Notes: generated from the letters alone by a model not told the origin. Counted from the first letter of the stretch, positions 24,103-41,602 are shown. The stretch is 64,000 nt of DNA from Candidatus Dormiibacterota bacterium (GCA_963713485.1 CAVQLW010000010.1:17376-81375), one strand, 5' to 3'. Numbers and translations: made by a program.

Positions 24103-26721
24103 GTGCATGACCACCGAGGCGGCGGCTCCGGATCCGCGGGCGCGCCCGCGCCGGCCGCTCCCGTCCGGCGGGGACACCGCGTTCACCTGCTCACCGTCGT
24201 GCTGCTGGCGACCGCAGTCATCCTCCTCGTCAAGGTGGTCGGCCCGCTGCAGGGGGTGGCAGCGCCCGGCCAGATTCCGTGGTGGGTGCTGATGCCGCTC
24301 TTCTGCGCCGCGGAGGTGTTCGTCGTCCACATCCAGTTCCGTCGCGATGCGCAGTCCTTCTCGCTCAGCGAGCTCCCGCTCGTCGTCGGCCTCTTCTTCG
24401 CGCCGCCGGTCGTCGTGGTCCTCTGCAACATCGCCGGGACGGCCGTCGCACTGGCGTTCTATCGCCGCCAGTCGCCGCTGAAGGTGGCGTTCAACCTCGC
24501 GAACTTCGCGGTCGCCAACAGCGTGGCGGCGCTGCTGTTCGTGCATCTTGTCGACCATCAGAATCCGCTGGGCACGACCAGTTTCATCGGGGTGCTGATC
24601 GCAATCCTCGTGGCCGGCGTCCTCCAGTCGGCGGTGATCCTCACCGCGATCTCATTCTCCGAAGGTCATCTCGATCCTGCCGGCGTCGCATCGACGTTCG
24701 GCTTCGCGCTCGCCGCGACCGGCGTCAACACGTGTCTCGCCCTCATCGGCGTGCGGCTCATCTGGTACAACCCGACTGAGCTGTGGCTGCTCGCCGTTCC
24801 GACGCTCGGTGTCTTCGTCGCGTATCGCTTCTACGTCGCCGAGCGTGAGAAGCGCGGCCAGGTCGACTTCCTGTACGAGTCGACCAAGGACCTGCAACGC
24901 AACGAGGCGGTTGACGAGGCCGTCGCCGGACTCCTGAGGAAGGCGTGCGAGGTGTTCCGCGCGGAGCGTGCCGAGATCACGTTCCTTCCGACGCGCGAAC
25001 GCGATGCCGTGCTGCGCACGACGGTCGACAAGGAGACCACGACACAGTTCATGGCACCGATCACGCTCGACGAGGCCGAGCTGCAGTTCATCAGCCGGCT
25101 CCTGCTCGACTCACCGCTCCTGCTCGGAGTCCGCGGCGGCACCGACGGCGACCCCGGCGCGTTCCTCGAGCAGCGCGGGCTGCGCGACGCGATGGCGGTG
25201 GTGCTGCGCGGCGAGAACAACATGGTCGGCACGATGCTCATCGCCAATCGCCTCGGCGAGGTGACCGGCTTCGACCACGAGGACCTGCGCCTGCTCGAGA
25301 TGCTTGCCAACCAGACGGGCATGATCCTCGAGCGGGGACGGCTGCAGCACTCGCTGTCGCAGCTCACCGTGCTCCAGGAGCAGCTGCAGCACGAGGCGTC
25401 ACACGACCCGCTGACGGGCATGGCGAACCGGCTCCTCTTCAGCTCGCGTGTGGAGCAGGCGCTCGCGCAGGTGGGACAGCACGTCGGCGTGCTCTTCATC
25501 GACATCGACGATTTCAAGACGGTCAACGACAGCCTCGGCCACGCCGCCGGCGATGAGCTGCTTCGCTCGATCGCCGACCGAATCGGACAGTGTCTCCGTC
25601 CCGGTGACATCGCGGCACGGCTGGGCGGCGACGAGTTCGCCGTGCTGCTCATCGGCATCGACGACTCGAGCATGGCGGTGCGCATCTCGGAACGCGTCAT
25701 CGATGCGCTGCGCGCGCCGTTCTCCATCGCCGGCGAGGAGGTCCTGACGCATGCGAGCATCGGGGTGGCGACGGCGGTGAGCGCCGGGTGCGACGGGCAG
25801 GAGCTCCTGCAGAACGCCGACCTTGCGCTGTACACGGCGAAGAGCTCGGGCAAGTCGCGATGGGAGCTGTTCGAGCCGGAGATGTACGCGGCTGTGCAGC
25901 GCCGGCACCGCCTCAAGGCCGATCTGTACCACGCGGTGGAATCGGTCGAGTTCGAGCTCGTGTACCAGCCCATCGTGCGCGTCTCGTCGCGCCGGATCGT
26001 CGCGTCCGAGGCGCTGCTTCGCTGGCGCCACCCCACTCGCGGGACGGTGCTGCCGGACGACTTCATGAGCCTCGTGGAAGAGACCGGGCTGATCCTGCAG
26101 CTCGGCGACTGGGTGCTCCGCAGCGCGTGTGAGGAGGCCCGCGGCTGGCCGGCGGCAGACGGTGCCGACCCGGTCGCCGTGAGCGTGAATGTCGCAGCGC
26201 GGCAGCTGCACCAAGCGGATTTCGTCGAGAGCGTGCGCAGGATCCTTGATGAGACCGGCCTCGAGCCGCACCGCCTGATCCTGGAGGTGACCGAGGCGCA
26301 CATCATCAGCGACCCCGAATTGATCATCCGTCGCCTCAACGCGCTTCGCGAGCTCGGCGTGCGCATCGCGCTCGACGACTTCGGCACCGGCCATTCGTCG
26401 CTGAGCCGCCTCGGTGACTTCCCCATCGATGTGCTGAAGATCGACAAGTCGTTCACCGCCTCGCTGTGTGGCCCGTCGCAATCGATCGGTTTCGCTCACT
26501 CCGTGTTCAGCTTCGGCGTGGGTCTCGGCCTCAGCGTCATCGCCGAAGGCGTGGAGACCGACGAGCATCTCCGCGAGCTGCGTGATCTCGGTTGCGAGCT
26601 TGCGCAGGGATATCTCTTCGGACATCCGATGACGCCGCTGGCGATGCGACGGCTGCTCGAGCACGACATCGAGCTGCCCATCTTCGCGATGCCGGTCGCC
26701 GCGGGGTCGTCGGCGGGCTGA
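24103..26721 (+). CDS. Membrane sensor-GAF-GGDEF-EAL diguanylate cyclase/phosphodiesterase
   Basis: About 7 N-terminal TM helices, GAF-like region, HDPLTG.ANR, RPGD I-site plus GGDEF, EAL, DDFGTG, KIDKSF, EGVE all intact. Confidence 0.93.
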   Translation: MHDHRGGGSGSAGAPAPAAPVRRGHRVHLLTVVLLATAVILLVKVVGPLQGVAAPGQIPWWVLMPLFCAAEVFVVHIQFRRDAQSFSLSELPLVVGLFFAPPVVVVLCNIAGTAVALAFYRRQSPLKVAFNLANFAVANSVAALLFVHLVDHQNPLGTTSFIGVLIAILVAGVLQSAVILTAISFSEGHLDPAGVASTFGFALAATGVNTCLALIGVRLIWYNPTELWLLAVPTLGVFVAYRFYVAEREKRGQVDFLYESTKDLQRNEAVDEAVAGLLRKACEVFRAERAEITFLPTRERDAVLRTTVDKETTTQFMAPITLDEAELQFISRLLLDSPLLLGVRGGTDGDPGAFLEQRGLRDAMAVVLRGENNMVGTMLIANRLGEVTGFDHEDLRLLEMLANQTGMILERGRLQHSLSQLTVLQEQLQHEASHDPLTGMANRLLFSSRVEQALAQVGQHVGVLFIDIDDFKTVNDSLGHAAGDELLRSIADRIGQCLRPGDIAARLGGDEFAVLLIGIDDSSMAVRISERVIDALRAPFSIAGEEVLTHASIGVATAVSAGCDGQELLQNADLALYTAKSSGKSRWELFEPEMYAAVQRRHRLKADLYHAVESVEFELVYQPIVRVSSRRIVASEALLRWRHPTRGTVLPDDFMSLVEETGLILQLGDWVLRSACEEARGWPAADGADPVAVSVNVAARQLHQADFVESVRRILDETGLEPHRLILEVTEAHIISDPELIIRRLNALRELGVRIALDDFGTGHSSLSRLGDFPIDVLKIDKSFTASLCGPSQSIGFAHSVFSFGVGLGLSVIAEGVETDEHLRELRDLGCELAQGYLFGHPMTPLAMRRLLEHDIELPIFAMPVAAGSSAG

Positions 26722-26751: not shown

Positions 26752-29700
26752 TCAGTGCGCGAGCGTCGCTCGCTCGGCAGCGATGCCCCCGCGTTGTTCG
26801 GCGGATCTCGTGCGCTGCACCCATGGGGTCGCGCGCAGCTGTTCGAACCTCGCTCGTGCCTGCGCCAGCTGATCCTGGGCTTCGGCATCGCGACCCTGCG
26901 CAATGAGACACTCGCCGAACTCGCACCGCGTCACCGCCAACCAGAAAGGGCGCTGCAACCGCGTGAAGGCGTCGATTGCGGCGATGAACTTCGGGACCGC
27001 GCGCTCATAGTCACCGAGCGCAGCCGTCAGGCGAGCCTCCCAGCGCAGGATGTGCGCGTCGACGGAGGGCTGGCGTCCGGGGCGGAAGTGCTCGCGCACC
27101 AGCTGCATCAGCTCGACCACCTTGGCGGCCTGGCCGAGTGCGAATGCGGCTTCAACAGCCTCGATGAGCGCGGCCCGCATGCCGACGGGGAACGTCTCGT
27201 CGACGCAGGCGCGCAGTGTGGCCTCCGCCATCGTGAGCGCGCCCACGTGGTCGCCTTCGGCATTCGCGACGGCCGCGCGAGCCGCTTCGTGCTGGACGCG
27301 CATCTCGATCTGCGCGTGCGCGACCAGCGGCGCACCCTCCTCCACCAGCCGTCGCCCGGCGGCGATGTCGCCGCGCAGCAGGTAAAGCCAGGCGGCGTTC
27401 ACCGCCTGAGCGCCCGGCCACACGAGCGAACCGAGCTCCGCCGCATCAGCCTCGAGGTACTCGTTGAAGATCGCCTCGGCCTCGTCCCACCGACCAAGCT
27501 CGATCAGCCCCTGCATCCGGTTGAGGCGAGTCCCGGCAGCCCTCGGGCGATCACCCAGCCGCCGAAGGATCTCCTCGGTCTGGCTGTAGATCTCGAGCGC
27601 GGACTCGAGCCGGTCGTCCTCTTCCAGGGTCGTCGCGAGGCTGATGGAAGACACCGACGCGCGCTGCGTCAGACCGTGCTCGAGCGCCACCGCGAGCCCG
27701 CCGCGGATGAGCACCTCCGCCTCGGCGCGGCGTCCGCGCGCAGCCAGAATGATGCCCTTGGTGTCGAGCGCCGGGCAGAGCACATCCCACAGGCCCTGGG
27801 TCTCGGCGACCTGGAGCGCGCGCTCCACATGGGGCAGCGCCGCATCGTAGTCGCTGTTGAAGTACATGAACCTCGCGAGCCGGCCGTCGATCGTCGCGAG
27901 AGTCGCCTGGTGCTCATCATCGGTTTCGTCGGGCGGGACGAGCGAGAGTGCTTCGCGCGTGTGCGTCAACGCGCTGGCCAGATTCCCGGCGTCGAAGTCG
28001 GCAGTGGCGAGCTCGCACAGCGCCATCGCCTCGCCCAGCGGCCGGCCTGTTTGCGCGTACAGCTCACGCGCGGACTCGAGGTGAGCTCGGCTCTGCGCGG
28101 CATGTCCCTGCAACCGAGCGGACTTGGCTGCCTTCTGATGCAGCTCCGCTCGCATCTCGTCGTCGGCGCTGAGCTCGAGGGCGTGCTCGTAATAGCGCTG
28201 CGCAGACGCGGCGCCTCCGAGCGAGCTGGCGTGTTCCGCGGCGCGAACCAGCGCGATTCGCGCGCGATCACGGATCTCCGGCGCGTCGGCCGCCGCCGGG
28301 TCCGCGTCATACGCTTCGACCAGATGCGCCGCGACGACCTCGGCGATCTCCTCTTCCTCGGACCACGTGCCGGCCAGATACATCGCTGCGGCAAGGTGGC
28401 GCGCCTTGCGCTCCTGGCGCGCGAGCGTTCCGTGCGCAACGCTGCGAATCAGGTCCTGCACGAACACGTACTGGCCGCGTTCGGGAGAGCGGGGATCGGA
28501 CTGAATCGCCAGCAGATCCTTGCTCACCAGCGACGTGAGCCCCGATTCGACCTCCGATTCGGGGATCTGCGTGATGGCACTGAGCGCCGTTCCGGTGAAG
28601 GATTTGCCGAGGACCGCGGCGTCCTGCAGCAGCGAGCGCTCGAGCGAGGTGAGACTGTCGAGCCGTGCGGCGATGAGCGCGTGCAGGCTCTCCGGGACTT
28701 CGAGCGCGTCCAGCGAGCCCTTTGCGCGATAGATGCCGCCCTCCTCGACCAGCAGCCCGCGATCGATGAGCATGCGCACGGTCTCGACCGCATACAGGGG
28801 CACGCCTGCGGCACGGTCGAGGATGAGCGCGTGCAGATCCTTCGGAAGGCCCGGCACCATGCCGTCGAGCAGCTGCGCCATCGAACCAGAGGGAAGCGGC
28901 TCGAGGAAGAGCGACGTGAGGCCGCGCTTGCCGGTGCCCCATCCCGGACGCCGCTCGGCGAACTCCGGTCGGGCCAGGGTGACGACGAGGATCGGCGACG
29001 TGCGAGACCACTCGAGCAGGTACTCGATGAAGTCGAGCAGTCCGCTGTCCGCCCACTGCAGGTCCTCGAAGATGAGCAGCGTCGTGTGCTGCGCCGACAT
29101 CCGCTCGAAGAAGACGCGCCACGCCGCGTAGAGATCCCGAGGATCGGCGACCGCGCGCTCCTCGAGGCCGAGCAGATGGGCCAATCGGGGCTCCACCCAC
29201 GCGCGTTCCTCGCTGTCGTGGATGAACGCCTCGACGCTACTGCGCAGCTTCTGCCGAGCGGTCTCGAGCGACTCGTTCTCGAGGATCCCGGTGCGCATGC
29301 GGACCATCTCGGTGAGCGCCGCGAACGCCACACCCTCGCCGTACGCAAGACACCGGCCGCGCTGGTACCAGATCGTCTCGGCGAGGCCGTCGATGTACTT
29401 GAAGAACTCCCACGCCAGCCTCGACTTGCCCACGCCGGCGAGGCCGACGATCGAGAGCAACCGCGCCCGGCCCTCGCCAGTCGTCGCGTGCATGAACTCC
29501 TTGAGCAGCCTGAGCTCGCGCTCACGTCCGACGAACGGCGGCTCGAGCCCGGTCGGCCGCAGGGCGCCCCCGGCGCCAGCGATGACTCGGGCGGCGCGCC
29601 AGAGCCGGACCGGCTCGGTCTTGCCCTTGAGCTGCCGCGTCCCCGCGTCCGCATATTCGATCGCGGCCTCGCTGGCACTGCGGGTGCTGTCGCCGACGAG

Positions 29701-30343
29701 GACGGTGCCGGGTTCCGCCTCCGACTGCACGCGGCTCGCAGTGTTCACGAGATCGCCGGCGACGAGCGCCTCATCGGTCGCGCCGAGGTTGACCGCAGCC
29801 TCGCCGGTGAGCACGCCGGCGCGCGCCTGGAGTCCGGGGATCCCTGCCTGCTCACCGAAGGCGGCGACCGCATCGACGAGCTCGAGCGCGGCCCGCACCG
29901 CCAGCTCCGCGTCGATCTCCTGAATCTCACGGACCCCCCACGCTGCCATCACGGCGTCGCCGATGAACTTCTCGACGGTGCCCCCGTAGCGTCTGATCAC
30001 CGTGCGAGCGGTGTCGAAGTACCGGGTCAGCAGCTCGCGCACGTCCTCCGCATCGCGCTGCTGTGAGAGTGAGGTGAACCCGACGAGGTCGGCGAAGAGC
30101 ACTGACACGTGCCGCCGCTCGGTCGGCCGGGCCCGTTCCGGGGTGACGAGGACGATCGGGGCGGGCGGTGGGGGAGGAGCGGGACCTCCGGCGGTGAGGG
30201 TCGCCGCCGCACTCCCCGCAGAACGCGTCGCCCTCCTCGTAGGCGGCGCCGCACGACGGGCACGACAGCGCGAGCGCGGCGCCGCACTTCGGGCAGAAGC
30301 GGCGTCCGGCGCGGGTCTCTGCTCCGCACGCAGGGCAGTTCAT
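26752..30343 (-). CDS. Double zinc ribbon-class III nucleotide cyclase-STAND ATPase-TPR-like protein 1 (apparent frameshift ~30205)
   Basis: CPAC..CPKC..CPSC..CGEC; LFADLVGF, EKFIGD, GDLVNTASR; Walker A GLAGVGKS; Walker B IFEDLQWAD; helical repeat C-terminus. Confidence 0.9.
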
Positions 30344-30449
30344 CGCCAACGGAGCTTACCGGTTCACGAGATCAGATCGGGAACCTGGCGACGAGTGCCG
30401 CCGGAGGGTGGTGATGGAGCGGCCCCGCGCGCACGACCCACCGCCGCCG

Positions 30450-33400
30450 TCACGGTCCCGTTGAGACGCGCTCCGTCACCGGTGGGTACGGACGAAGGGC
30501 GAGCTCAGCGCGATGCAGCCATGGCTCGGCCCCCAGCTCCGTGAACGCGCTCAGTGCCTGCTCGAGCTGGACGCGCGCCTCGTCGTCGCGGCCGCGTTCC
30601 GTCAGCCATTCCCAGAGCTCCACTCGAGCCATCGCGAGCCAGAACGGCCGGCCGAGACCCTCGAAGGCATCGATCGCCTTGCGAAGCAGCTGCAGGGGCT
30701 CCTCGTCTCCGCGCCGATCGTGCATCCGAGCTCTCCATCGAAGGATGTGGGCGTCGACGGTCGGCTGGCTGCCCGCTGAGAAGTGCCCGCTTGCCTTCTC
30801 GATCAGGGCCGCGACATCGGCCTCCCGCCCGAGCGCGAAGAGGGCGTCCACCGCCTCGCAGAGCGCGCGGCGGGCCATGGTCGGGTACGAGGGCATGGAG
30901 ATCGCGAGCGATCTCTCGGCCGCTTCGAGGGCATCGCCGGGCCTGCGCTCAGCATTTGCGAGACCTGCGCGCGCCGCCTCGAGCAGCGCGCGGAGATCGG
31001 CAGGCACCGTGCCGGCCGGGCCGGAACCTTCGAACAGCGCGTCGGCGTCCGCGACAAGCCTGCGTGCGAGGTCCAGCTGACCCCGCCAGAGGAACAACCA
31101 GGTGGCACTGACCGCGTAACCGACCGTCGGGACATGGCCCGCAAGATCCGCCGCGTCGTGGTCGAAGTAGTACGTGACGATCTCCTCGCAGCGATCCCAG
31201 CGCCCGAGATCGAGGAGGGACGGCGTCCCTGCCAGGTCCGCGAACGCGGCGCTGACGCGGTCACCGACCCTGCGCGCCGAAATCGCCGCCTGCTCGAAAT
31301 GCTGCACCGCAGGCTCGAGGCGGTCAGCCTCCTGGAGCGTGTCGGCCAGGTTGCTCTCGATGGTGCCGACGCGGCTCAACCCGATGGCACGAGCCAGCTT
31401 CAGGGCGCCCTCGTCGAGGACCAGCCCCTCCTCACGCCTGCCGCGAGCAGCGAGGATCCACGACTTCGTGTCGAGGCCGGTGGTGACGATGTCGAGGAGC
31501 TTCGATGTCTCAGCGATCTGGAGCGCGAGCTCGACGTGCTCGAGCGCGTGATCCATGTCCTCATGGAAGTACTCGGCTGCGGCGAGCCGAACAGCGGTCT
31601 CCGCCAGGGCAGCGTTCCGCTCGGGGTCCGCGTCGTCCGCGGCCTTGAGCATCATGAGGGCGGCTTCACCGCGCTCGATGGCGACTTCCGTCTTTCCCGC
31701 GGACATCTCGACGACCGAGATTCCGCTGAGCGCTCTCGCGGCGGCCGCGGTGTCCCCCAGGGACGTGTGGAGCGCGTGTGCGGTGGTGTAGTGCGCCTTT
31801 GCCTGCTGATCGCGGCCCTGCATCCTCGCCACCTGTCCTGCCTTCGCGGAAAGCTCGGCGCGAGTCCGGTCATGCTCGGCAAGCTCCAACGAGCGCTCGT
31901 AATAACGCTGCGCGGAGTCGAGCGCTCCCAGCGAGCTCGCGTGATCGCCGGCGCGGACGAGCGCACGCAGCGCGCGTTCGCGAATCGCGGGGGCGTCCGT
32001 TGCGGTCGGCTCGGCCTCGTGCGCCGCGACAAGATGGACCGCGATCACCTCAGCGACGCCTTCCTCGCCGCCCCACGACGACTCGAGGTAGTCCGCCGCG
32101 GCGAGGTGCCGCGACCGCCGATCCTTCCGCGCGAGCGTGCCGTGAGCAACGCCGCGCACCAGGTCCTGCACGAAGACGTACTGGCCGCGCTCCGGCGAGC
32201 GCGGGTCCGACTGTATCGACAGCAGGTCCTTCTCGACCAGGGTCGAAAGCGCCGACTGCACAACGCTGAGTGGCTGTCCGGATACCGACGCGAGCGCCTC
32301 GCGCGTGAACGACTTGCCGAGGACGGCCGCGTCCTGGAGCAGGTGCCGCTCGGTGGGCTGGAGGCCGTCGAGCCGTGCGGCGATCATTGCGTGCAGGCTC
32401 TCGGGCACTTCGAGCGAGTCGAGCGATCCGATGGCGCGGTAGGCGCCGCCCTCCTCAACGACCAGTCCGCGGTCGAGGAGCATCCGCACCGTCTCCACCG
32501 CATAGAGGGGGATCCCAGCGGCGCGCTCGAGGATGCGCGCCCGAAGCTCCTCGGAGAGGCCGGGCACCATGCCGTTGAGGAGTGATGCCATCGCGTCGCT
32601 CGTGAGCGGTTCGAGGTAGAGCGACGTGAGTCCGCGTTTGCCGATACCCCAGCCCGGCCGGCGCTCGGCGACCTCGGGCCTCGCGAGCGTCAGCACGAGG
32701 ATCGGGCTGTTGCGCGACCACTCGAGGAGGTACTCGATGAAGTCGAGCAGGCCGCTGTCGGCCCACTGCAGGTCCTCGAAGACCAGCACGGTGAGCTGGT
32801 CCGCCGCCAGCTTCTCGAAGAACATCCGCCACGCTGCGAAGAGGTCACGCGGCTCGCTGGACAGCTCCCGGTCGAGGCCGAGCAGCTGTGCGAGACGAGG
32901 CTCCACCCAGCGGCGTTCCTCATCGTCAGAGATGAACTGCTGGACGGTTCGGCGAAGCTTCTCGCGTGCAGCCTCCTGCGGCTCGCTCTCGACCATCCCC
33001 GCGCGGGTGCGGACCATCTCCGCCAGGGCCCAATACGCGATGCCCTCGCCGTAGGCGAGGCACCGGCCTCGATGCCAGTACACCGGCTGCGTGAGGCCGT
33101 CGATGTATTTCTCGAACTCCCACGAGAGCCGTGACTTGCCGACACCCGCCACGCCGACCACCGACAGCAGGCGCGACTTCCCATCCTCAGCGGTGGCGTG
33201 GAGCATCTCCTTGAGGAGGCGAAGCTCGCGGTCACGTCCCACGAAGGGGGGTTCGATGCCGGTGGGCCGCATCGACCCGCCGCGGCCCGCGACCACGCGG
33301 TTCGCGCGCCACAGGCGGAGCGGCTCCCCCTTGCCCTTCAGCTCGTGCGTCCCGGTGTCGTCGTAGACGATCGCCGCCTCGGTGGCCTGGCGCGTCGTCT

Positions 33401-34062
33401 CGCCGACCAGCACGGTGCCGGGTGACGCAGCGGATTGAACACGCGAAGCCGTGTTGACAAGGTCGCCCGCGACCATCGCCTGACCGGAGGCATCGAGATT
33501 CACAGCGGCTTCGCCGGTGAGCACGCCGACGCGTGCTTGCAGCCCCGGTGCGCCGACCGCGTCGCCGAACGCGGTCACCGCATCGATGAGGTCGAGGCCC
33601 GGCCCGGACCGCGCGCTCGGCGTCGTCCTCCTGGATCGTCGGGATCCCCCACACCGCCATCACGGCGTCGCCGATGAACTTTTCGACGGTCCCGCCGTAC
33701 CTCGTGATGATCGTGCTCGCCGAGTCGAAGTACCGGGTGAGCAGTTCCCGGACGTCTTCGGCATCGCGCTGTTGCGAGAGGTTTGTGAACCCGACGAGGT
33801 CCGAGAAGAGCACGGTGACGTGCCGGCGCTCGGCGGCCGGCGCCCGTACGGCGAGCGCCTCCGGCGCGGCCACGGAGGTTTCAACGCCACGCGGTGCTGT
33901 ACCCGCGGCGGCGTCAAGGGGTGATCCGCAGCCCCCGCAGAAATGCTCGTCGGCGTCGTTCGGCGTGCCGCACTGTGCGCAGAGGCGCTCGAGGGAAGCC
34001 CCGCAACGCCCGCAGAACCGCCGGCCGGCTCTGTTCTCGGCCCCGCACGCTGCGCATCTCAC
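30450..34062 (-). CDS. Double zinc ribbon-class III cyclase-STAND ATPase-TPR-like protein 2 (apparent frameshift ~33600)
   Basis: CAAC..CGRC..CAQC..CGGC; LFSDLVGF, EKFIGD, GDLVNTASR; GVAGVGKS; VFEDLQWAD; GTG start overlaps the MBL stop. Confidence 0.9.
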
Positions 34063-34946
34063 GTGCGGAGGGTACTTTGCTGCGGCTCGAGCCGTGATCC
34101 GCCTGCGCTGCCCACGTCGAGCACCTCCCACTCGATCGCGGCGGTGACGGGGACCGGCGCGTCGGCCCAGCGCGCGACGATGCCGTCGAGCTGCTCGTCC
34201 GATCGCCACGGATCGTGGTGGAAGAGCACGAGCCCCCTCGCTCCGGCGTGCGCGGCGAGGCCGACGGCGTAGTCGATGCTCGAATGCCCGAAGTGCGCCC
34301 TCGCGGGGAATTCCTCGCTCGTGTACTGCGAATCGTGGAGGAGCAGGTCGACACCCTGCGTCAGCCGCACCGCCGTGTCATGGTATGGACCGAAGCCGTC
34401 CGGCCCGGGACCGAGCGCGATCGGCGCGTGGTCCGGCATGTACGCGATCGCGGAGTGTCCGTCCGAAACCCGGTATCCGAACGTGCGCCCACCCTTGTGC
34501 GGGATCTCGAGCGCCAGGACGTCGCAGCCCTCGATGTGGTGCTCACCGGCGCTGAGATGCTCGAACTGCCATGAGCCGCGCATCTCGCGCGGGCGGATCG
34601 GAAAGTGCGGTGGCGACATCGCACGGGCGAGGATCTCCTCGGCGTCGCCGCCCGGCTGCTCCGGGATGTAGAGCGTCGTCTGCGCCTCAGGATTGTCGAC
34701 GGACGAGCAGAACGGCAGGCCGTGCGTGTGGTCCCAGTGGAGGTGGGTGAGGAGGATGCTGCCGGTGAACGGCCGGCCCTCCAACGCCGCGGGAAGCCTG
34801 CGCAGGCCAGTGCCCGCGTCGAGGACGAGGCGGCACTCGCCGTCGTCCGCGAGGACCGCCACGCACGATGTCTGACCGCCATAGCGGGCGTAATCCACGC
34901 CCGGCGCGGGCGTGGACCCCCTCGTCCCGCAGAGCCGCAGCCGCAT
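34059..34946 (-). CDS. MBL-fold metallohydrolase (RNase Z/PhnP-like, putative cyclic-nucleotide phosphodiesterase)
   Basis: GTRGSTP, LDAGTG, THLHWDH, PH..RTFGYRV, PDH, HDSQY, GHS, LFHHDP. Confidence 0.88.
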   Translation of the reverse strand: MRLRLCGTRGSTPAPGVDYARYGGQTSCVAVLADDGECRLVLDAGTGLRRLPAALEGRPFTGSILLTHLHWDHTHGLPFCSSVDNPEAQTTLYIPEQPGGDAEEILARAMSPPHFPIRPREMRGSWQFEHLSAGEHHIEGCDVLALEIPHKGGRTFGYRVSDGHSAIAYMPDHAPIALGPGPDGFGPYHDTAVRLTQGVDLLLHDSQYTSEEFPARAHFGHSSIDYAVGLAAHAGARGLVLFHHDPWRSDEQLDGIVARWADAPVPVTAAIEWEVLDVGSAGGSRLEPQQSTLRT

Positions 34947-35027
34947 GCCCCATAGGGTATCGGCGCCGAGTACGCTTCCGCGCGTGAATCGCCGCCCCTG
35001 GGTTTCCCGCGCACGCCGCGTCGTCAC

Positions 35028-36803
35028 ATGAGCCCGGAGGTCGCCGAACAGCCGAAGCCCCCGGTCAGGCGCCGGCTCATCGCGCGCCTGACGGGCCGGA
35101 GCCCCGACGACACGACGCCGCGGGTCGGTTACCGCACGCTGTTCCGCAACCGTGACTACCGCCTGCTGTTCAGCGGGCTCACCATCTCCATGAGCGGTTC
35201 CTGGGCGTACAACGTCGCGCTCGTCGTCTTCGTCTTCAACGCAACGCACTCCCCGGCGTGGGTCGCCGCGGCGTCGATGACGCGCTTTCTCACCGCGCTC
35301 GTGACCAGTCCCATCGGTGGCCTGGTCGCCGACCGGTTGGAGCGGGTGCGACTGATGGTGACGCTCGATTCGCTGGCGCTCGTGTTCCAGACGGGCCTTG
35401 CAATCGTCGCGGCGCTGAACGGTCCGGTGGTGCTCGGCATCGTGCTCGCTGCGATGACGTCAGTCACGACGTCGTCATACGATCCCGCGGCGCGCGCAAC
35501 GACGCCGATCATCGTGGGCGAGGAGCACCTCGCAGCGGCCAACAGCGCACAGTCGGTCGTCGAGAATCTGTCGATCATCGTCGGTCCGGCGATCGCAGGT
35601 CTGCTGCTGCTGTTCAGCCCGCCGGCGGTGGTGTTCGGCGTCAATGCGGCGACGTTCGGATTCTCTGCGCTGGTGGTGAGCCGGATGCGCACCCGCAGCC
35701 ATCCGACGGACATCTCCGAGGGCGGCTCCGCGGGACCGCTCAAGCAGATGGGGGCGGGCATCCGCGCATTCGTGTCGTCGCCGAGCGTCACGCTGCTTGC
35801 AGGTTTCAGCATCCTCGCGAGCTTCGTGTACGGGACTGACACGGTGCTCTTCGTGGTGATCAGCAAGAACCAGCTGGGCACCGGGAGCAGCGGATACGGC
35901 TACCTGCTCGCCGCGCTCGGCGTCGGCGGGATCCTGATCGCAGGATTCATGAATCGCGTCGCCGCCGCCGGCCGCCTCGGTCGGATCATCGTCATCGGGA
36001 TGGCGGTGTACTGCCTGCCGACGTCCCTGCTGACGATCGTGCATTCGCCGTGGATCGCGTTCCTGCTCGAGGTGGTCCGTGGCGCCGGGACCATCGTCGT
36101 CGACGTGCTCGCCATCACCGCGTTGCAGCGCCTCGTGAAACCCGATGTCGTGGCGCGAGTCTTCGGCGTCTTCTTCGCGCTCGTGCTCGCGGCGATCTCG
36201 CTCGGCGCGCTGCTCATGCCCATCCTGCTCGGGAGTGTCGGGCTCAACACCACACTCCTCATCATGGGATTCGCCATCCCCGCGCTCGCCGTCGCGGCGT
36301 ACCCGTGGATTCGCGTGCTCGACACGAGGGCGTTGCGCGAGCTGTCCGCGATCGAGCCACGCATCACCGTGCTGCAGAGCCTCGACATCTTCGCGGGCTC
36401 AACCCGAGCGGCGTTGGAGCGCATTGCGCGCGCGGCGGTCGAGGAGAAGGTTGACGCCGGCATCGTGCTCATTCGCGAGGGCGCCGACGCGGACGACTTC
36501 TTCGTCCTCACCGACGGCCAGGTCGAGATCCTGGCGGCCGGCGAAGCGGGCGTCGAGAAGTCGCTCGGCGTGCTCGGCCCGCCCAACTACTTCGGCGAGA
36601 TCGGCTTGCTCGAGCATCGCGCGCGCACCGCGACGGTCAAGACCGTCGCGCCCTGCGCGATCTATCGCATCAACGGAGAAGACTTCGTCAACGCGATGAC
36701 GGTCGCCAACCTGTCGCCGACCGCGCTCGGGAGAACGCAGGCTCGGCTTGCGCGCACACATCCCTCGGCATCGCTCACCTTCGGACAGCCGAGCGGGGAC
36801 TGA
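35028..36803 (+). CDS. MFS transporter fused to a C-terminal cyclic nucleotide-binding domain
   Basis: 12-TM DHA3-like MFS (FRNRDYRLL, GLVADRLER), then IREGADADDFFVLTDGQVEI...FGEIGLL...RTATV phosphate-binding cassette. Confidence 0.9.
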   Translation: MSPEVAEQPKPPVRRRLIARLTGRSPDDTTPRVGYRTLFRNRDYRLLFSGLTISMSGSWAYNVALVVFVFNATHSPAWVAAASMTRFLTALVTSPIGGLVADRLERVRLMVTLDSLALVFQTGLAIVAALNGPVVLGIVLAAMTSVTTSSYDPAARATTPIIVGEEHLAAANSAQSVVENLSIIVGPAIAGLLLLFSPPAVVFGVNAATFGFSALVVSRMRTRSHPTDISEGGSAGPLKQMGAGIRAFVSSPSVTLLAGFSILASFVYGTDTVLFVVISKNQLGTGSSGYGYLLAALGVGGILIAGFMNRVAAAGRLGRIIVIGMAVYCLPTSLLTIVHSPWIAFLLEVVRGAGTIVVDVLAITALQRLVKPDVVARVFGVFFALVLAAISLGALLMPILLGSVGLNTTLLIMGFAIPALAVAAYPWIRVLDTRALRELSAIEPRITVLQSLDIFAGSTRAALERIARAAVEEKVDAGIVLIREGADADDFFVLTDGQVEILAAGEAGVEKSLGVLGPPNYFGEIGLLEHRARTATVKTVAPCAIYRINGEDFVNAMTVANLSPTALGRTQARLARTHPSASLTFGQPSGD

Positions 36804-39800
36804 TCAGGAAGCGGTCACCAATCCCGGTGCCGCCTGCTCCACCCGGTCCAGCCACGGGCTCGCCTTGAGGCGTTCGAAGACCAGCGCCGCCTCGGTGAGC
36901 ATCGGTTGCGCAGCGGCCTGCCTTCCCTTTCCGATCAGCCACTCCGCGTGCTCGACCTGCGTCACGGCGTGCCAGAAGGGCATGCCGATCTGAGCGAAGG
37001 TGTCCTCAGCCTCGATGAAGGATAGCTCGACGGCGGCGGTATCGCCTCTGATCTCGGCGAGCCGGGCACGGAATCGCTGCTGCTGGGCGTGGAGATACCG
37101 TGGCCGCTCGCCCGCTCCGAGGCGGTCGACGAACGCACACAGCTCTTCGACCTTCGCAAGGTTGTTCAGTGCGAATGCGGATTCGCACGCCAACCGAAAG
37201 CCGGCCTTGACGTTCTGATGGCTCGCACCGCCGAGCGGTGCGGCGAGGGCGATCGTCGCCTCGGCATCTGCCAGCGCCTCACCAAACCTGCCCTGAGCGT
37301 GGCGCAGGCACGCGCAACTCGCGAGGAAGCATGAACTCGCCTGCCAGTCATCCGACGAAGCGAGTGGCGCCGTCCATGCCACCAGCCGCTCGAGTTCCTC
37401 GACATGACCGCGCTCGACCGCCATCTCACCGGCGGCGAGGAGCGACAGGACATCACCAGGCGCGCTGCGCACCTCCTCCTCGCCGATCATCGCTGCGAAC
37501 TCCGCGGCCTCATCCCATTCGCCAACTCTCGAGAGGTTGAACGCAAGCTCACCGATGGTGCTCCGCTCGTACGAACGGTCCCCGATCTTCCTGGTGAGTG
37601 CGAGCGCGCTGCGATAGTGATCGAGCGCCTCGAAGTAGCGGTCGCGGTGACACAGGAGATCCGCGAGGTTGAAATGGGCGCGGACCGTGGCTGTCGGGAG
37701 GTCGTTGTCAACGCCAAGTTCCAACGCGTGCGCATAGAGGGCCATCGCCTCCTCGGTGTGCCGGCGTTGCATCGCGAGCATGGCCTTGACGTTCAGTGCC
37801 TGTGAGACGATCTCCGGCAAGCCAAGTCTCTCGGCGATATCCAGTCCGACCTCGAGGCGCTTCCCGGCGGTTTCGGTCTCGCCTTTGAAATGCAGCAATG
37901 ACCCGAGGCGCACGGCGAGCACGGCGAGATCCTCGTCCGGGGTATCGTTGGCGAGCACCGTGAACGCACCCTCCATTCGCTGGATGGAGCGGTCGAGGTG
38001 ACCGCTCACTGACTCGACCATTCCGAGTCGGGACAGGGCGCGTGCGGCAGGATGCGGCAGGTGCTCGCTCTCGTACAGGGTGATCGCCCGCTCGAGGTGC
38101 GCCGTCGCGGCGGCGTTGCGGCCGGTCCGCACCGCCATCTGCCCGGCGCGCTCGTGCATCTCGGCCTGCCGCGCCGAGTCGGGTACCAGCCGTGACGCCT
38201 GCTCGAAGTAGCGTTCCGCTTCCAGGTTGGCAGCGAGTGACGCCGCGTGCTCGCCGGCCTGGAAAAGCACCTCCGCCGCTCGATCCTTGACCTGATCCGC
38301 ATCCGGATCCTGTGGCGCGAGGTTGTACGCCTCCAGGTAGTGCGCTGCGATCACCTCGACGACGTCGCCCTCTTCGCCGCCCCACGATTCCTCGTACCAC
38401 GCTGCCACGGCAAGGTGCTTCTCCTTGCGATCCCGCTTCGACAGCGTCTCGTAGGCAACTCGCTTCACGAGGTCCTGCAGAAACCCGTACTGGCCTCGCT
38501 CGGGTGAGCGGGGATCAGCCTGTACCGAGAGCAGCTCCTTGCGCACCAGCTCCGCGAGCATCGGCTGCAGTTCCGACGCCTGGACACCGCTCACCGCCGC
38601 CAGTGAGGCAACCGTGAACGTCTTGCCGAGGACGGCCGCGTCCTGGAGCACATGGCGTGCCTCGGGCCGCAACCCGTCGAGCCGCGCCGCGATCAGCCCG
38701 TGCAGGCTCTGCGGGACCTCGAGGTCCTCGACAGCGCCGGTGAGCCGGTACACACTCCCAGCACGCTCGAGCAGTGAGCGATCGAGCAGCATCCGCACGG
38801 TCTCCACGGCGTAGAGCGGTACGCCCTCGGAGCGCTGCAGGATCTGCTCCCGAAGCTCGTCGGGGAGCCCTGGAACCAGCCCGTCGAGCAGCTGCTCCAT
38901 GGCGGTCGCCGCGAGTGGCTCGAGAAAGGCGGAGGTGAAGTTGCGCTTGCCCGCGCCCCACGTTGGATGGCGATCGACCAGCTCAGGCCTCGCCGCCGTG
39001 ACCACGTACAGCGCGTGGTTGCGTGACCACTCGAGGAGGTACTCGACGAACTCCAGCAGCGATGTGTCGGCCCACTGCATGTCCTCGAACACGAGCACGG
39101 TCGGATGCCGGTCGGCGAGCCGCTCGAAGAACAGGCGCCAGGCGCTGAAGAGGTCCTCGCGTTCCTGGGTTGCGCGCTCCTCGAGCGCGAGGAGTTGGGC
39201 GAGGCGGGGTTCCACCCAGCGGCGCTCGTCGGCGTCCGGGACGAACTCGCTCAGGCAGGCCTGCAGCTTGACGAGCGCCGAAGCGGAGTCCTCGGCCTCG
39301 GTGATCCCGGCGCGCATCCGGACCATCTCGGCGAGAGCCCAGTACGTCACGCCTTCGCCGTAGGCGAGGCACCTGCCGCGGTGCGTGTACACGAGCTCGG
39401 CAATCCCGTCGATGTACTTGTGGAACTCCCAGCAGAGCCGCGACTTGCCGATCCCGGCGATGCCCACGACCGACACGAGGTGCGCCTTCCGCTCTTGGGC
39501 GCTGGCATGGAAGAGATCCTTGATGAGGCGCAGCTCCCGGTCCCGACCGACGAATGGAGCCTCGAGCCCTTCCGACTTCTGCCCGCCACCGACCATGGCG
39601 ACCACGCGCAGCGCTCGCCAGAGCCGTACGGGCTCCGCCTTACCTTTGAGTGCATGCTCGCCCACGTCCGCATAGACGACCGCCGCATCGGTGGCGCTCC
39701 GGGTGGCCTCGCCCACGAGCACTGCGCCGGGCGGCGCCTCGGCCTGGATCCGCGAGGCGGTGTTGACGAGGTCACCTGCCACCATCCCTTGCGCGTCGGC

Positions 39801-40358
39801 GCCGAAGGTGACCGCGGCGGCCCCGCTGAGCACGCCGGCACGGGCCTGCAGCACCGGTTCGCCGATCTCCGCGCCCAGGAGGGAGACCGCCTCGATCAGC
39901 TCCAGGGCCGCGCGCACCGCCCTTTCGGCGTCGTCCTCATGGGCTGAGGGCGCGCCCCAAACAGCCATCACCGCGTCTCCGATGAACTTCTCCACCACAC
40001 CGCCATACCGGCTCACCACCGCACGGCAGGTGTCGAAGTACCTCGTCAGGAGCTCGCGCACCTCCTCGGCATCGCGCTTCTCGGAGAGCGTGGTGAAGCC
40101 GACGAGGTCCGCGAACAGGACGGACACGAGCCGCCGCTCAGCCGTGGTGGCGCTGTCAGGTACCGGTGCGGGCACGGCCGGTCGCTGCGTCGCGGGCGCC
40201 GAGCCGCCGGACAATGGCGCACCGCACTCGTCGCAGAACTTCGCCTCCGGGCGGACCGGGGTCGAGCACGAGGGGCACGTGCGCGCGAGCCCCGTCCCGC
40301 ATTCCGAGCAGAATTTGCTGCCAGGACGGTTCTCCGCGCCACAGTTGGAACAGCGCAT
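36804..40358 (-). CDS. Double zinc ribbon-class III cyclase-STAND ATPase-TPR-like protein 3 (intact)
   Basis: MRCSNC..CSEC..CPSC..CDEC; LFADLVGF, EKFIGD, GDLVNTASR; GIAGIGKS; VFEDMQWAD; TPR-like C-terminus. Confidence 0.93.
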   Translation of the reverse strand: MRCSNCGAENRPGSKFCSECGTGLARTCPSCSTPVRPEAKFCDECGAPLSGGSAPATQRPAVPAPVPDSATTAERRLVSVLFADLVGFTTLSEKRDAEEVRELLTRYFDTCRAVVSRYGGVVEKFIGDAVMAVWGAPSAHEDDAERAVRAALELIEAVSLLGAEIGEPVLQARAGVLSGAAAVTFGADAQGMVAGDLVNTASRIQAEAPPGAVLVGEATRSATDAAVVYADVGEHALKGKAEPVRLWRALRVVAMVGGGQKSEGLEAPFVGRDRELRLIKDLFHASAQERKAHLVSVVGIAGIGKSRLCWEFHKYIDGIAELVYTHRGRCLAYGEGVTYWALAEMVRMRAGITEAEDSASALVKLQACLSEFVPDADERRWVEPRLAQLLALEERATQEREDLFSAWRLFFERLADRHPTVLVFEDMQWADTSLLEFVEYLLEWSRNHALYVVTAARPELVDRHPTWGAGKRNFTSAFLEPLAATAMEQLLDGLVPGLPDELREQILQRSEGVPLYAVETVRMLLDRSLLERAGSVYRLTGAVEDLEVPQSLHGLIAARLDGLRPEARHVLQDAAVLGKTFTVASLAAVSGVQASELQPMLAELVRKELLSVQADPRSPERGQYGFLQDLVKRVAYETLSKRDRKEKHLAVAAWYEESWGGEEGDVVEVIAAHYLEAYNLAPQDPDADQVKDRAAEVLFQAGEHAASLAANLEAERYFEQASRLVPDSARQAEMHERAGQMAVRTGRNAAATAHLERAITLYESEHLPHPAARALSRLGMVESVSGHLDRSIQRMEGAFTVLANDTPDEDLAVLAVRLGSLLHFKGETETAGKRLEVGLDIAERLGLPEIVSQALNVKAMLAMQRRHTEEAMALYAHALELGVDNDLPTATVRAHFNLADLLCHRDRYFEALDHYRSALALTRKIGDRSYERSTIGELAFNLSRVGEWDEAAEFAAMIGEEEVRSAPGDVLSLLAAGEMAVERGHVEELERLVAWTAPLASSDDWQASSCFLASCACLRHAQGRFGEALADAEATIALAAPLGGASHQNVKAGFRLACESAFALNNLAKVEELCAFVDRLGAGERPRYLHAQQQRFRARLAEIRGDTAAVELSFIEAEDTFAQIGMPFWHAVTQVEHAEWLIGKGRQAAAQPMLTEAALVFERLKASPWLDRVEQAAPGLVTAS

Positions 40359-40492
40359 GCAGGCTCCCAGATTGTTACTCGGTCGCCCAGGGTACCGGGC
40401 GAGGAGCGGCTGCGCCAACCCGCCGGCCTCACCGGGCGACGCTCCATCGGCCTCGATCGGACGGTGGCCGCGATGCCGCTCGGCGATGCTTC

Positions 40493-41499
40493 CTACTGAG
40501 GCGTGATGGTCGCGGTGCCGTCCTCGGCGATGTTCACGAGGACCGCGTCCGCCGCAGCGCTCGGGCCGCTGGGATCGACCGTGATCATCACCGTGACCGT
40601 GGACGGGTACTTCGCCTCCATGGTGAGGTAGTTCGAATGCGACTGCCTCGCCGGAACCGCTGATTGCAGTTGGTACCACTGGTCGCTGTTGCCGCTCGCC
40701 GAACTCGCCGTGCACCTGCATCCCGGCGGGAAGCTCGTGGTCGGAGGTGTTCTCGAGCAGGTAGTGCACTCGGAACAGGCCGCTGCCCAAGTGCTCGACC
40801 TGCTCGATCTTCACGGTCAGTGTGTACGTCTGCGTGTCGTCGAACGACAGCGCCGTCCCCTGATGCCCGGCAATCTGTGTCGTGGCTGCCGGCGACGTGC
40901 GCCACCACCGCGCCGTCCCGATCCCGGACAACGACGGTCACCTCCCACGTCCCGGGATCGAGCTGTATCGGCATGGTCCCGTACTGCGTCTCGCCGGGGG
41001 CGAATGCTCCGGCGGGGCTCGCCACGGAAGTGCGCGTTGCTCTGACCGCTGTCCGTCGAGACGGCCTGGACGGCCGGAGTCAGCATCCCGTCCTCGACCG
41101 CAGCGGCGCCCGTGTTGGTGATCGTGTAGCGCACGTTGAGCCCGGTCGTCCCGTCGGCGAGTGTCGCGTGATCGAGCGTCGGTTCCGAGACCGTGATGCT
41201 GAGCGCCGCACCGTGTGCTGTCGCAGCGGCTTCGGTACGCAGCGGCCCCGCTCGCCGAGCTGCCGGCGGCTTGCTGCGGCCGCGCCCTGCACCGGTTGCC
41301 ATTGCGCGCCATCCCATTGCCACTGGCCGTCTTCCGAGAGCGCCCCCACTCCCGATGATGTGGTGGTGCCTGCGGGGGCGGTCTCGGTTGCTGCGGCCGC
41401 GCCACCGGCGGTCGCACCGCTCACCGGCTGCCATTGCGCGCCGTCCCACCACCATTGACCGTCCTCCGAACGGGGCGCGTCCTGCGGGATGACCGACAT
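40493..41499 (-). CDS. Protein with two SEDGQWxWDGAQWQP repeats and probable Ig-like beta domains (several apparent frameshifts)
   Basis: RBS GGAGG plus MSVIPQDAPRSEDGQWWWDGAQWQPV...SEDGQWQWDGAQWQPV; beta-rich segments (VRYTITNTG, FRVHYLLENTS) pieced across frames, ending DGTATITPQ-stop. Confidence 0.55.
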
Positions 41500-41602
41500 C
41501 GATCGACCCTCCGTGATCAGTGGCCAGCCGGGTGTCCGAGCGGTCCCATGATATGCCCGTATTGCCGCCGATTGACATCGGACGACACGAGGAGTGCACA
41601 GC

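Follow-up and report, generated by a model that had tools for sequence, protein, structure and literature searches.

What might three genes for large nucleotide cyclases be doing around the gene of a transporter that carries its own cyclic-nucleotide receptor? The question is raised by a locus in a stretch of 64,000 nucleotides from a Candidatus Dormiibacterota bacterium (GCA_963713485.1, CAVQLW010000010.1:17376-81375), here called the window, from whose first letter the coordinates are counted. Each of the three proteins joins a class III cyclase to an ATPase of the STAND class (signal transduction ATPases with numerous domains), and among their genes lie those for a hydrolase of the metallo-beta-lactamase (MBL) fold and for a transporter of the major facilitator superfamily (MFS) fused to a cyclic-nucleotide-binding domain (CNBD). 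An original prediction, made from this sequence alone, proposed a self-contained circuit for a cyclic nucleoside monophosphate (cNMP), either immune-like or stress-sensing, in which the cyclases write the signal, the hydrolase erases it and the transporter reads it. The reading that we prefer, with a probability of roughly 60%, is a physiological cNMP module, the core of which would be one to three MalT-like STAND cyclases beside an MFS_3 exporter with a cytoplasmic CNBD, the exporter being gated through that domain.

The locus consists of the following features, with the source of each assignment given in brackets.

26752..30343, minus strand: cyclase 1; double zinc ribbon, class III cyclase, AAA_16 STAND ATPase and tetratricopeptide repeat (TPR)/MalT-like domain (open reading frames (ORFs) and Pfam)
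30450..34062, minus strand: cyclase 2, with the architecture of cyclase 1 and a GTG start (ORFs and Pfam)
34059..34946, minus strand: MBL-fold hydrolase of 295 aa, a candidate cyclic-nucleotide phosphodiesterase (Pfam Lactamase_B_2)
34947..35027, no strand: divergent intergenic region of 81 bp between the MBL and MFS-CNBD starts, with presumed promoters (sequence)
35028..36803, plus strand: MFS_3 (DHA3/EntS-like) transporter with a C-terminal cNMP-binding domain, 591 aa (Pfam)
36804..40358, minus strand: cyclase 3, intact with 1184 aa; zinc ribbon, class III cyclase, AAA_16 and TPR, convergent with MFS-CNBD (ORF and Pfam)

The five genes thus lie where they had been predicted and carry the predicted domains, as ORFs and Pfam matches confirm. 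Two junctions that had been pointed out are likewise read directly from the sequence: the MBL stop overlaps the start of cyclase 2 (GTGA, 34062-34059), and the MFS-CNBD stop abuts the stop of cyclase 3 (TGATCA, 36801-36806). Three cyclase genes of about 1,200 aa had been described; the domains are there in all three, but only cyclase 3 is a single open frame.

If the cyclases and the transporter work together, their genes are expected to stay together in other genomes. Using E <= 1e-40 as the threshold for presence, 19 of 24 genus genomes and 14 of 16 genomes of the sister family have the MFS-CNBD gene, which means that the gene, and with it the module, is near-core. These tallies include the unpublished genomes G027, G032 and G036, all of which match; without them the sister-family count is 11 of 13. 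Twenty loci, 12 from the genus and 8 from the sister family, were compared by tblastn. A cyclase-STAND gene adjoins the MFS-CNBD gene in 14 of these 20 loci, namely in all genus loci except that of G001 (11/12) and in 3/8 from the sister family. The usual layout is co-directional, with two cyclases followed by the transporter and at times by one more cyclase.

Additionally, a wider scan was carried out with one genome per species, covering the best 80 of 202 relatives' loci; it overlaps with the genus and sister-family genomes and is not independent of them. A cyclase-STAND gene is adjacent to the transporter gene in 50 of the 80 loci and within 10 kb in 12 more, and in 10 loci, situated on short contigs, there is no cyclase. 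Among the adjacent loci are some from Solirubrobacterales, Thermoleophilaceae (Thermoleophilia) and other metagenome-assembled genomes (MAGs) of Actinomycetota, where the two genes are divergently oriented and identity in the transporter is about 50%. Since the linkage survives inversion and spans two phyla, it argues for a functional pairing of cyclase and MFS-CNBD. The predicted link between writer (cyclase-STAND) and reader (MFS-CNBD) is well supported by this conservation, and the catalytic and cNMP-binding residues are kept as well. This part of the original prediction therefore stands. It had also expected both neighbours to be linked to cyclases elsewhere, which holds for the transporter gene and not for the MBL gene, as described below. 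In a group of loci from Chloroflexia-labelled or uncultured MAGs (L062-L069), about 1.8 kb lies between the divergent cyclase-STAND gene and the MFS-CNBD match; this stretch (for example L064, 8100-10000) either is an ORF to which Pfam assigns no family or extends the transporter at its N-terminus, in an open frame of 820 aa.

The domain content of the cyclases was determined with Pfam, which gives DZR/Zn_Ribbon_1, Guanylate_cyc, AAA_16 and TPR_12/TPR_MalT. The Guanylate_cyc family (PF00211, cut-off 21.9 bits) scores 75.3 and 68.3 bits and, where the domain is split in two pieces, 40.8 and 29.5 bits. Cyclase 1 has Guanylate_cyc at 75, AAA_16 at 78, TPR_12 at 73 and TPR_MalT at 46 bits (46.2 with a cut-off of 45), and DZR at 46 bits on the upstream frame. 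The N-terminal piece of cyclase 2 holds DZR and Guanylate_cyc positions 5-78, and its C-terminal piece Guanylate_cyc positions 99-176, AAA_16 and TPR_12. Across all three cyclases AAA_16 lies at 78-80 bits and TPR_12 at 55-73 bits, and no helix-turn-helix (HTH) family, as would be expected for a LuxR-type output, was found in the three proteins by Pfam. Among solved structures, the one closest to the cyclase domain of cyclase 3 is that of CyaB, an adenylyl cyclase of class IIIb (3r5g, E 1.4e-23). This architecture is present in at least 8000 database proteins.

Residues needed for catalysis were counted in 57 uninterrupted homologues taken from loci around MFS-CNBD genes, with cyclase 3 of the window left out. 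Both metal-binding Asp, the substrate-binding Lys, the transition-state Asn and Arg and the GKS of Walker A are found in 57/57, the Walker B Glu in 54/57 and the Walker B Asp in 56/57. This means that five of the six canonical catalytic residues are invariant. The sixth, the second substrate- or base-specifying position, is Asp or Thr in adenylyl cyclases; in the alignment to CyaB 3r5g, 44 of the 57 homologues have Met there, 7 have Leu, 4 have Ser and 2 have Ile. Because the catalytic and Walker residues are otherwise kept, the cyclases look active.

For the three window paralogues, identities are 62-73% over the cyclase domain and 60-72% over the NTPase but only 33-46% over the TPR arm. A tree of the 57 intact cyclases was made with FastTree from uninterrupted ORFs of at least 850 aa with cyclase and GKS motifs, and was rooted at the midpoint; frameshifted and truncated copies are left out of it, cyclase 3 is disregarded in it, and the orthology of cyclase 3 is based on tblastn identities. 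It suggests several old paralogue lineages of the cyclase that have changed position around the transporter gene.

The transporter matches MFS_3 (PF05977) with 95.7 bits (cut-off 27), MFS_1 also being matched, and its cNMP_binding domain (PF00027) scores 63.2 bits (cut-off 27.5) at residues 452-577 or thereabouts, approximately 36381-36758 in the window. TIGR00900 reaches 160.7 bits, which is under its cut-off of 319.6, and membership in MFS_3/DHA3 is therefore assigned at the level of the family and not of the subfamily; EntS/Mef/Tet(V) matches were obtained too. These matches point to an exporter of the DHA3/EntS/Mef group. In the phosphate-binding cassette FGEIGLL...RTATV, the residues G523, E524, R533 and A535 are invariant in 51 MFS-CNBD sequences. 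The RTATV part we take to be PKG-like, PKG being cGMP-dependent protein kinase. An AlphaFold2 (AF2) model, with a mean predicted local distance difference test (pLDDT) value of 82, has a complete MFS bundle of 12 helices, and directly after the last membrane helix a further helix (425-451) leads to the CNBD. The nearest solved folds, LmrP, VMAT, MdfA and NorA, align over the MFS part only, and no entry covering both MFS and CNBD was among the 50 matches listed in the fold search.

How such a module could work is suggested by two established facts. MalT binds its ligand, then oligomerises in an ATP-dependent manner and activates its effector, and class III cyclases need dimeric active sites. 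By analogy with both, the predicted route from ligand to oligomer to active cyclase would be as follows. Each cyclase paralogue would bind its own ligand through its divergent C-terminal TPR/MalT-like domain, after which the AAA_16 module would oligomerise with ATP and the oligomers would pair the N-terminal class III cyclase domains into active dimers producing a cNMP, most likely cAMP. The cNMP would bind to the CNBD and, judging from the AF2 model, may change the activity of the transporter via the connecting helix, without transcription. In one subclade, to which the host belongs, the MBL phosphodiesterase, translationally coupled to cyclase 2, would reset the signal. The cyclases are called MalT-like because of their TPR_MalT and AAA_16 matches and because neither an Avs nor a NACHT model from PADLOC was matched.

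The MBL hydrolase itself has 72 bits for Lactamase_B_2 in Pfam. Its HxHxDH motif and the further His and Asp positions (H68, H70, D72, H73, H150, D172, H221, H243/H244) are conserved in 37 relatives. The AF2 model has a pLDDT of 93, and the nearest folds are ELAC1, RNase Z, YhfI and the PhnP family, whereas Apyc1 (7u2s) comes at fold rank 43 with a template modelling (TM) score of 0.56 on the query and a profile E-value of 0.0072. By sequence and model the protein is thus placed in the RNase Z/ELAC/PhnP/YhfI branch of MBL phosphodiesterases, of which Apyc1 appears as a distant member. Fusions were looked for in the top 150 of 7409 relatives, 29 of which are longer than the core; they carry a CNBD in 6, GAF in 7 (one having both) and REC in 8 cases, so that CNBD or GAF is present in 12/29. 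The cNMP-regulated MBL phosphodiesterases of Dictyostelium are likewise fused to CNBD or GAF. These fusions are the best evidence for a role as eraser of cyclic nucleotides, which they make plausible; the conserved metal ligands, the branch in which the protein is placed and the GTGA overlap with cyclase 2 also speak for a phosphodiesterase.

A number of findings weigh against the preferred reading, and several of these concern the MBL. Its gene is present in only 13 of the 80 loci and absent from the other 67; the 13 belong to the clade nearest to the window, together with L060, where it flanks the transporter on the opposite side. Nine of the 24 genus genomes hold an orthologue, which lies beside the transporter gene in 5 of these 9, and with the window MBL as query none was found in the 16 sister-family genomes. 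In G003, G013, G018 and G021 the orthologue is unlinked, having no cyclase or transporter within about 8 kb, and the contexts in which G018 and G003 have it bear no relation to one another. Furthermore, the protein does not match PF23023 (Anti-Pycsar_Apyc1) at E-values up to 10, and it scores 36.6 bits against NF041851 (cyclic-nucleotide phosphodiesterase), a weak end-to-end match with a cut-off of 400. Of the predicted eraser, what remains is its plausibility; as a constant partner with an Apyc1-type signature it does not hold, and the MBL is a lineage-specific, facultative addition outside the conserved core. The linkage of the other genes also has its exceptions, there being no cyclase-STAND gene beside MFS-CNBD in 5 of the 8 sister-family loci and no cyclase in 8 of the 80 loci, each of which has flanks of 4 kb or more on either side. 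The product of the cyclases is not safely cAMP, because the position for Asp or Thr is occupied by Met, Leu, Ser or Ile. Two of the three cyclases are frameshifted in the sole assembly of the host genome, and the case for assembly error comes to three contigs of low depth, where run X1 may be the source sample. Finally, besides the cyclases and the CNBD of the locus, the genome has four class III cyclase genes and ten CNBD matches, a Crp-type regulator among them, and a diffusible cNMP need not act only locally. With seven class III cyclase genes and eleven CNBD matches in the host genome, the circuit is not self-contained, and that claim had to be given up.

Four observations on the MBL gene were made besides. 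In L034 (JBAQGL010000097.1, 3865-6679) it forms a divergent pair with MFS-CNBD without any cyclase-STAND match in 3.8 kb upstream and 5.3 kb downstream, so pairing of MBL and transporter is possible without an adjacent cyclase. In L114 (G003:C1, 9548-11797) the unlinked orthologue is part of an open frame of 750 aa with an N-terminal DUF222, which may be a fusion or may result from a stop or frameshift that was missed. The MBL frame of G007 is open as well, for 1389 aa. Lastly, relatives of the GGDEF-EAL protein that is found beside cyclase 1 (24103-26721, see below) lie less than 10 kb from the unlinked orthologue in G018 and, in G001 (L018), near MFS-CNBD.

The genome-wide counts lead to the alternative that survives best, although we consider it unlikely, namely that there is no dedicated circuit. 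The cyclases would feed a cell-wide pool of cAMP whose main readers are Crp-type regulators and other CNBD proteins, MFS-CNBD would be one reader out of many, adjacency would be the outcome of local duplication and co-regulation, and the MBL would be an unrelated phosphodiesterase of the RNase Z/PhnP kind. The seven cyclase genes and eleven CNBD matches are in line with this, as is a locus on contig 6 where two further cyclase-STAND genes are mixed with genes for CNBD proteins, a Crp-type regulator and a protein with a GAF domain; for the MBL, its nearest folds and sequences (RNase Z, ELAC1 and the PhnP family) and the unrelated contexts in G018 and G003 fit too. Local duplication and co-regulation, however, would have to account for an adjacency that is kept through co-directional, divergent and convergent layouts, and in two phyla at protein identities of about 50%; unless the pairing itself is under selection, this is difficult to explain.

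The locus on contig 6 (L117, G000:C6:187000-206900) is a second cyclic-nucleotide hub of the host genome. It contains a small CNBD protein, a cyclase-NHL protein, two proteins with zinc ribbon, cyclase, AAA_16 and TPR, a Crp-type CNBD-HTH protein, a GAF protein, a subtilase and another CNBD protein, and both of its cyclase-STAND genes are split by apparent frameshifts. A subtilase (Peptidase_S8) is located near cyclase-STAND genes in both host loci, at 22217-23974 in the window and at 10164-10976 in L117, which may be coincidence.

A second alternative keeps the dedicated circuit and changes the messenger. The cyclases would form an array resembling nucleotide-binding leucine-rich repeat receptors (NLR-like), in which the TPR arm of each paralogue is tuned to a different intracellular ligand, for instance a xenobiotic, a metabolite or an invader protein, and a messenger other than cAMP, insulated from the Crp network, would gate the MFS exporter. 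Such a messenger is hinted at by the family-wide Met at the base-specifying position together with the presumably PKG-like RTATV cassette; as a whole the proposal is quite unlikely.

The question whether the locus serves in defence was approached from its proteins, its neighbours and its rate of evolution. In PADLOC, PycC models match the cyclase domain, at best with 70.6 bits over profile positions 182-322 of 374, and PycTIR and effector models match the CNBD through their CNBD part alone; the STAND and MBL parts of the locus proteins are unmatched, and no Avs or NACHT model is hit. The flanks were scanned from about 14.5 to 56.3 kb, which comprises 17 proteins. Among these neighbours are a sigma-70 protein (regions 1.1 to 4), a thiamine-binding protein, a Na/Ca exchanger, an aminotransferase, an ammonium transporter, a subtilase and a GAF-GGDEF-EAL protein, and the 17 proteins include neither a mobile-element gene nor a complete PADLOC defence system. 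A defence island was considered from PADLOC matches in the flanks and rejected, the matches being to generic domains only (subtilase, the sigma-70 part of MzaA, cysteine-desulfurase-like and methyltransferase).

For comparison of rates, identities were taken against the same five genus genomes. They are 83-85% for MFS-CNBD, 83-88% for the MBL, 79% for the cyclase orthologues and 80-83% for an FMN-dependent dehydrogenase of the window, whose gene shares a contig with that of the transporter in two of the five. A GT/GH130 protein (49705-52104) was tried as a further yardstick and had no orthologue in the five genomes searched. With these identities, an ordinary rate and vertical inheritance of the region are indicated. 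Given a near-core module, housekeeping neighbours, this rate and the outcome of the PADLOC check, with domain-level matches and no complete system in the locus or its 17 flanking proteins, the immune-like option of the original prediction is unsupported, and the locus looks like physiological signalling and not like an immune system.

The corresponding alternative, which we regard as improbable, is a Pycsar- or NLR-like antiphage system, where TPR arrays sense phage proteins, STAND cyclases make a cNMP, MFS-CNBD acts as a membrane-disrupting effector of abortive infection and the MBL guards against self-activation. The order of N-terminal effector, STAND NTPase and C-terminal repeat sensor does resemble Avs and NLR proteins, the paralogues diverge most in the sensor repeats, and cyclase copies are gained, lost and truncated between species. 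The PycC match and the CNBD matches to PycTIR and effector models could be added, but they are matches of domains, leaving the STAND and MBL parts aside, and the effector would be a complete 12-helix MFS_3 transporter in place of a TIR or a protein with 2-4 transmembrane helices. In a 2026 preprint, cNMP cyclases with a fused STAND NTPase (NACHT, AP-ATPase) are predicted to form an immune clade, long branches and conflict-type neighbours serving as the criteria, and Pycsar loci with several cyclases are noted (10.64898/2026.08.12.744502). The window cyclases have an AAA_16 of the MalT type, not NACHT or AP-ATPase, and neither long branches nor conflict-type neighbours in the sense of that text; the locus evolves no faster than a metabolic enzyme, its gene for MFS-CNBD is near-core (19/24 and 14/16 genomes), and housekeeping genes without mobile or defence systems surround it.

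It remains to account for the broken frames. Cyclase 1 changes frame at about 30199-30201, in a C run between the zinc ribbon (ATG at 30343) and the cyclase domain, and cyclase 2 at about 33601, inside the cyclase domain; both sites are short C/G runs. Logan contigs of four public runs were aligned to 29800-34300 (4.5 kb), and the indels listed in comparison with the window are found only at the two frameshift sites. One base is absent at 30199 in one contig of run X2 and at 30201 in one contig of run X1 (depths 2.6 and 2.4, respectively); these may be close strains, since each contig has 5 other differences. At 33601 one base is missing from a single 582-nt contig of X1, which has 2 further differences and a depth of 3.3. 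The other contigs counted at this site, from X2 and X4, are without the deletion, and they may be paralogues or other organisms because of the conserved motif, the piled-up depth and many loose ends. Dropping one base restores the frame at each site, and past both breaks the frames are open without further stops and with the catalytic residues intact. In tblastn of the loci, orthologues in other genomes read through both sites. Splits are also seen elsewhere: four of the five cyclase-STAND genes in the host genome are split, plus a further cyclase on contig 16, and the few-contig genus MAGs G004 and G005 have frameshifts in the conserved MFS-CNBD gene too. Taken together, the contigs lacking the base, the orthologues reading through and the splits in the host genome and genus MAGs indicate that the breaks in cyclases 1 and 2 are very probably indel errors of long-read assembly, although the contigs give this only thin support.

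That the frameshifts are real, with cyclases 1 and 2 as decaying pseudogenes and cyclase 3 alone working, is highly improbable, as the broken frames of the only assembly, the many split cyclases of the host (four of five, and that of contig 16), a truncated paralogue with a large internal deletion in G018 and those X2 and X4 contigs without the deletion at 33601 stand against sole indels in 4.5 kb that are each frame-restoring and located in short C/G runs, downstream frames that stay open with their catalytic residues, and the frameshifts of G004 and G005, which point to an artefact of technology.

The truncated paralogue, next to MFS-CNBD in L015 (G018:C1, 8961-9886), retains no more than roughly 208 residues from its beginning and 90 from its end, from which it follows that genuine decay of paralogues also occurs. 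In the window there are same-strand pairs of ORFs with high GC3 that overlap in different frames (9307-10044/9977-10732, 59422-60252/60179-60544 and 60994-62379/62322-63170), and the cyclase of contig 16 (G000:C16:81516-82032) matches in two pieces; these may be further assembly indel errors.

Several known systems resemble parts of the locus. E. coli MalT has in common with the window cyclases an AAA_16-type STAND NTPase and a TPR_MalT-like sensor arm, and differs in its output, which is a C-terminal DNA-binding domain in MalT and an N-terminal cyclase here. The MBL shares with Apyc1 and other MBL cNMP phosphodiesterases the fold, the HxHxDH site and the phosphodiesterase branch; it differs from Apyc1 in failing PF23023 and NF041851, in the fold rank of 43 and in being chromosomal, not phage-borne. 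Rv3239c and Rv3728 of Mycobacterium tuberculosis carry a CNBD and have about 1050 aa with a further patatin/esterase-like domain. They share with the window transporter an MFS efflux-type domain fused to the cytoplasmic CNBD, whereas the latter, compared by description, ends after its CNBD at 591 aa. Rv3239c and Rv3728 are listed as MFS efflux pumps (PMC6300501) and Rv3728 as a membrane efflux protein (PMC10865251), and the available parts of these two papers describe no function or cyclase pairing for them.

The closest described proteins to the window cyclases are Rv0386, Rv1358 and Rv2488c of Mycobacterium tuberculosis, which according to a preprint consist of a class IIIc cyclase, a MalT-type ATPase, TPR and a LuxR HTH and belong to the LAL family (10.1101/2024.03.06.583649). 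Shared with them are the N-terminal class III cyclase, the MalT/AAA_16 ATPase and the TPR-like repeats (10.1101/2024.03.06.583649, PMC2447327), and furthermore a non-canonical second substrate-specifying residue. By their descriptions, the window cyclases are set apart by an added N-terminal double zinc ribbon, by having no LuxR HTH and by their genetic pairing with an MFS-CNBD transporter. In the absence of the LuxR HTH, the only evident output of the window cyclases is the nucleotide. In Pycsar and Pucsar systems (PycC with CNBD-TIR or CNBD-TM) a class III-type cyclase likewise stands beside a membrane or CNBD protein, with several cyclases in some loci (10.64898/2026.08.12.744502). In contrast to Pycsar, the window has a full MFS_3 protein in the place of the effector, a cyclase fused to a MalT-type STAND, near-core distribution, a housekeeping context and an ordinary rate.

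No part of the locus falls outside known families, and proteins with the cyclase architecture are very common. What is apparently new is that MalT-type STAND cyclases and an MFS transporter bearing its own cNMP receptor form a conserved pair; among open-access papers and bioRxiv, we found no paper on the pairing of cyclase-STAND with MFS-CNBD and none on cAMP signalling in Dormibacterota. Should the CNBD gate the transporter, ligand sensing would be tied to efflux directly and at the post-translational level, in two soil phyla that have received little study. It would also offer a tractable model for CNBD control over secondary transporters, as well as a natural output assay for a large family of STAND-fused cyclases that is biochemically almost untouched. 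If the array with a messenger other than cAMP were true, the transporter would be the first second-messenger-gated major facilitator, giving inducible efflux independent of transcription, whereas merely one cAMP reader beside one cyclase would be ordinary.

As for the surroundings, the host MAG has 3.06 Mb in 16 contigs with an estimated completeness of 87%, the window being part of contig 10 with a G+C content of 68%, and the public runs that hold window sequence are soil and peat metagenomes. An Rfam scan of 20000-46000 gave no RNA family. Upstream of cyclase 3, about 1.2 kb (40359-41575) is without a convincing gene. The frame of cyclase 3 is open upstream to a TTG at 40931, which would add 190 residues, and the orthologues begin at the MRCSNCG of the zinc ribbon; an ORF on the opposite strand covers 40664-41458, and neither this ORF nor the upstream extension matches a Pfam or PADLOC family. 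On the other side of the locus, the membrane GAF-GGDEF-EAL protein (c-di-GMP turnover) at 24103-26721 is convergent with cyclase 1 and ends 30 bp from its stop.

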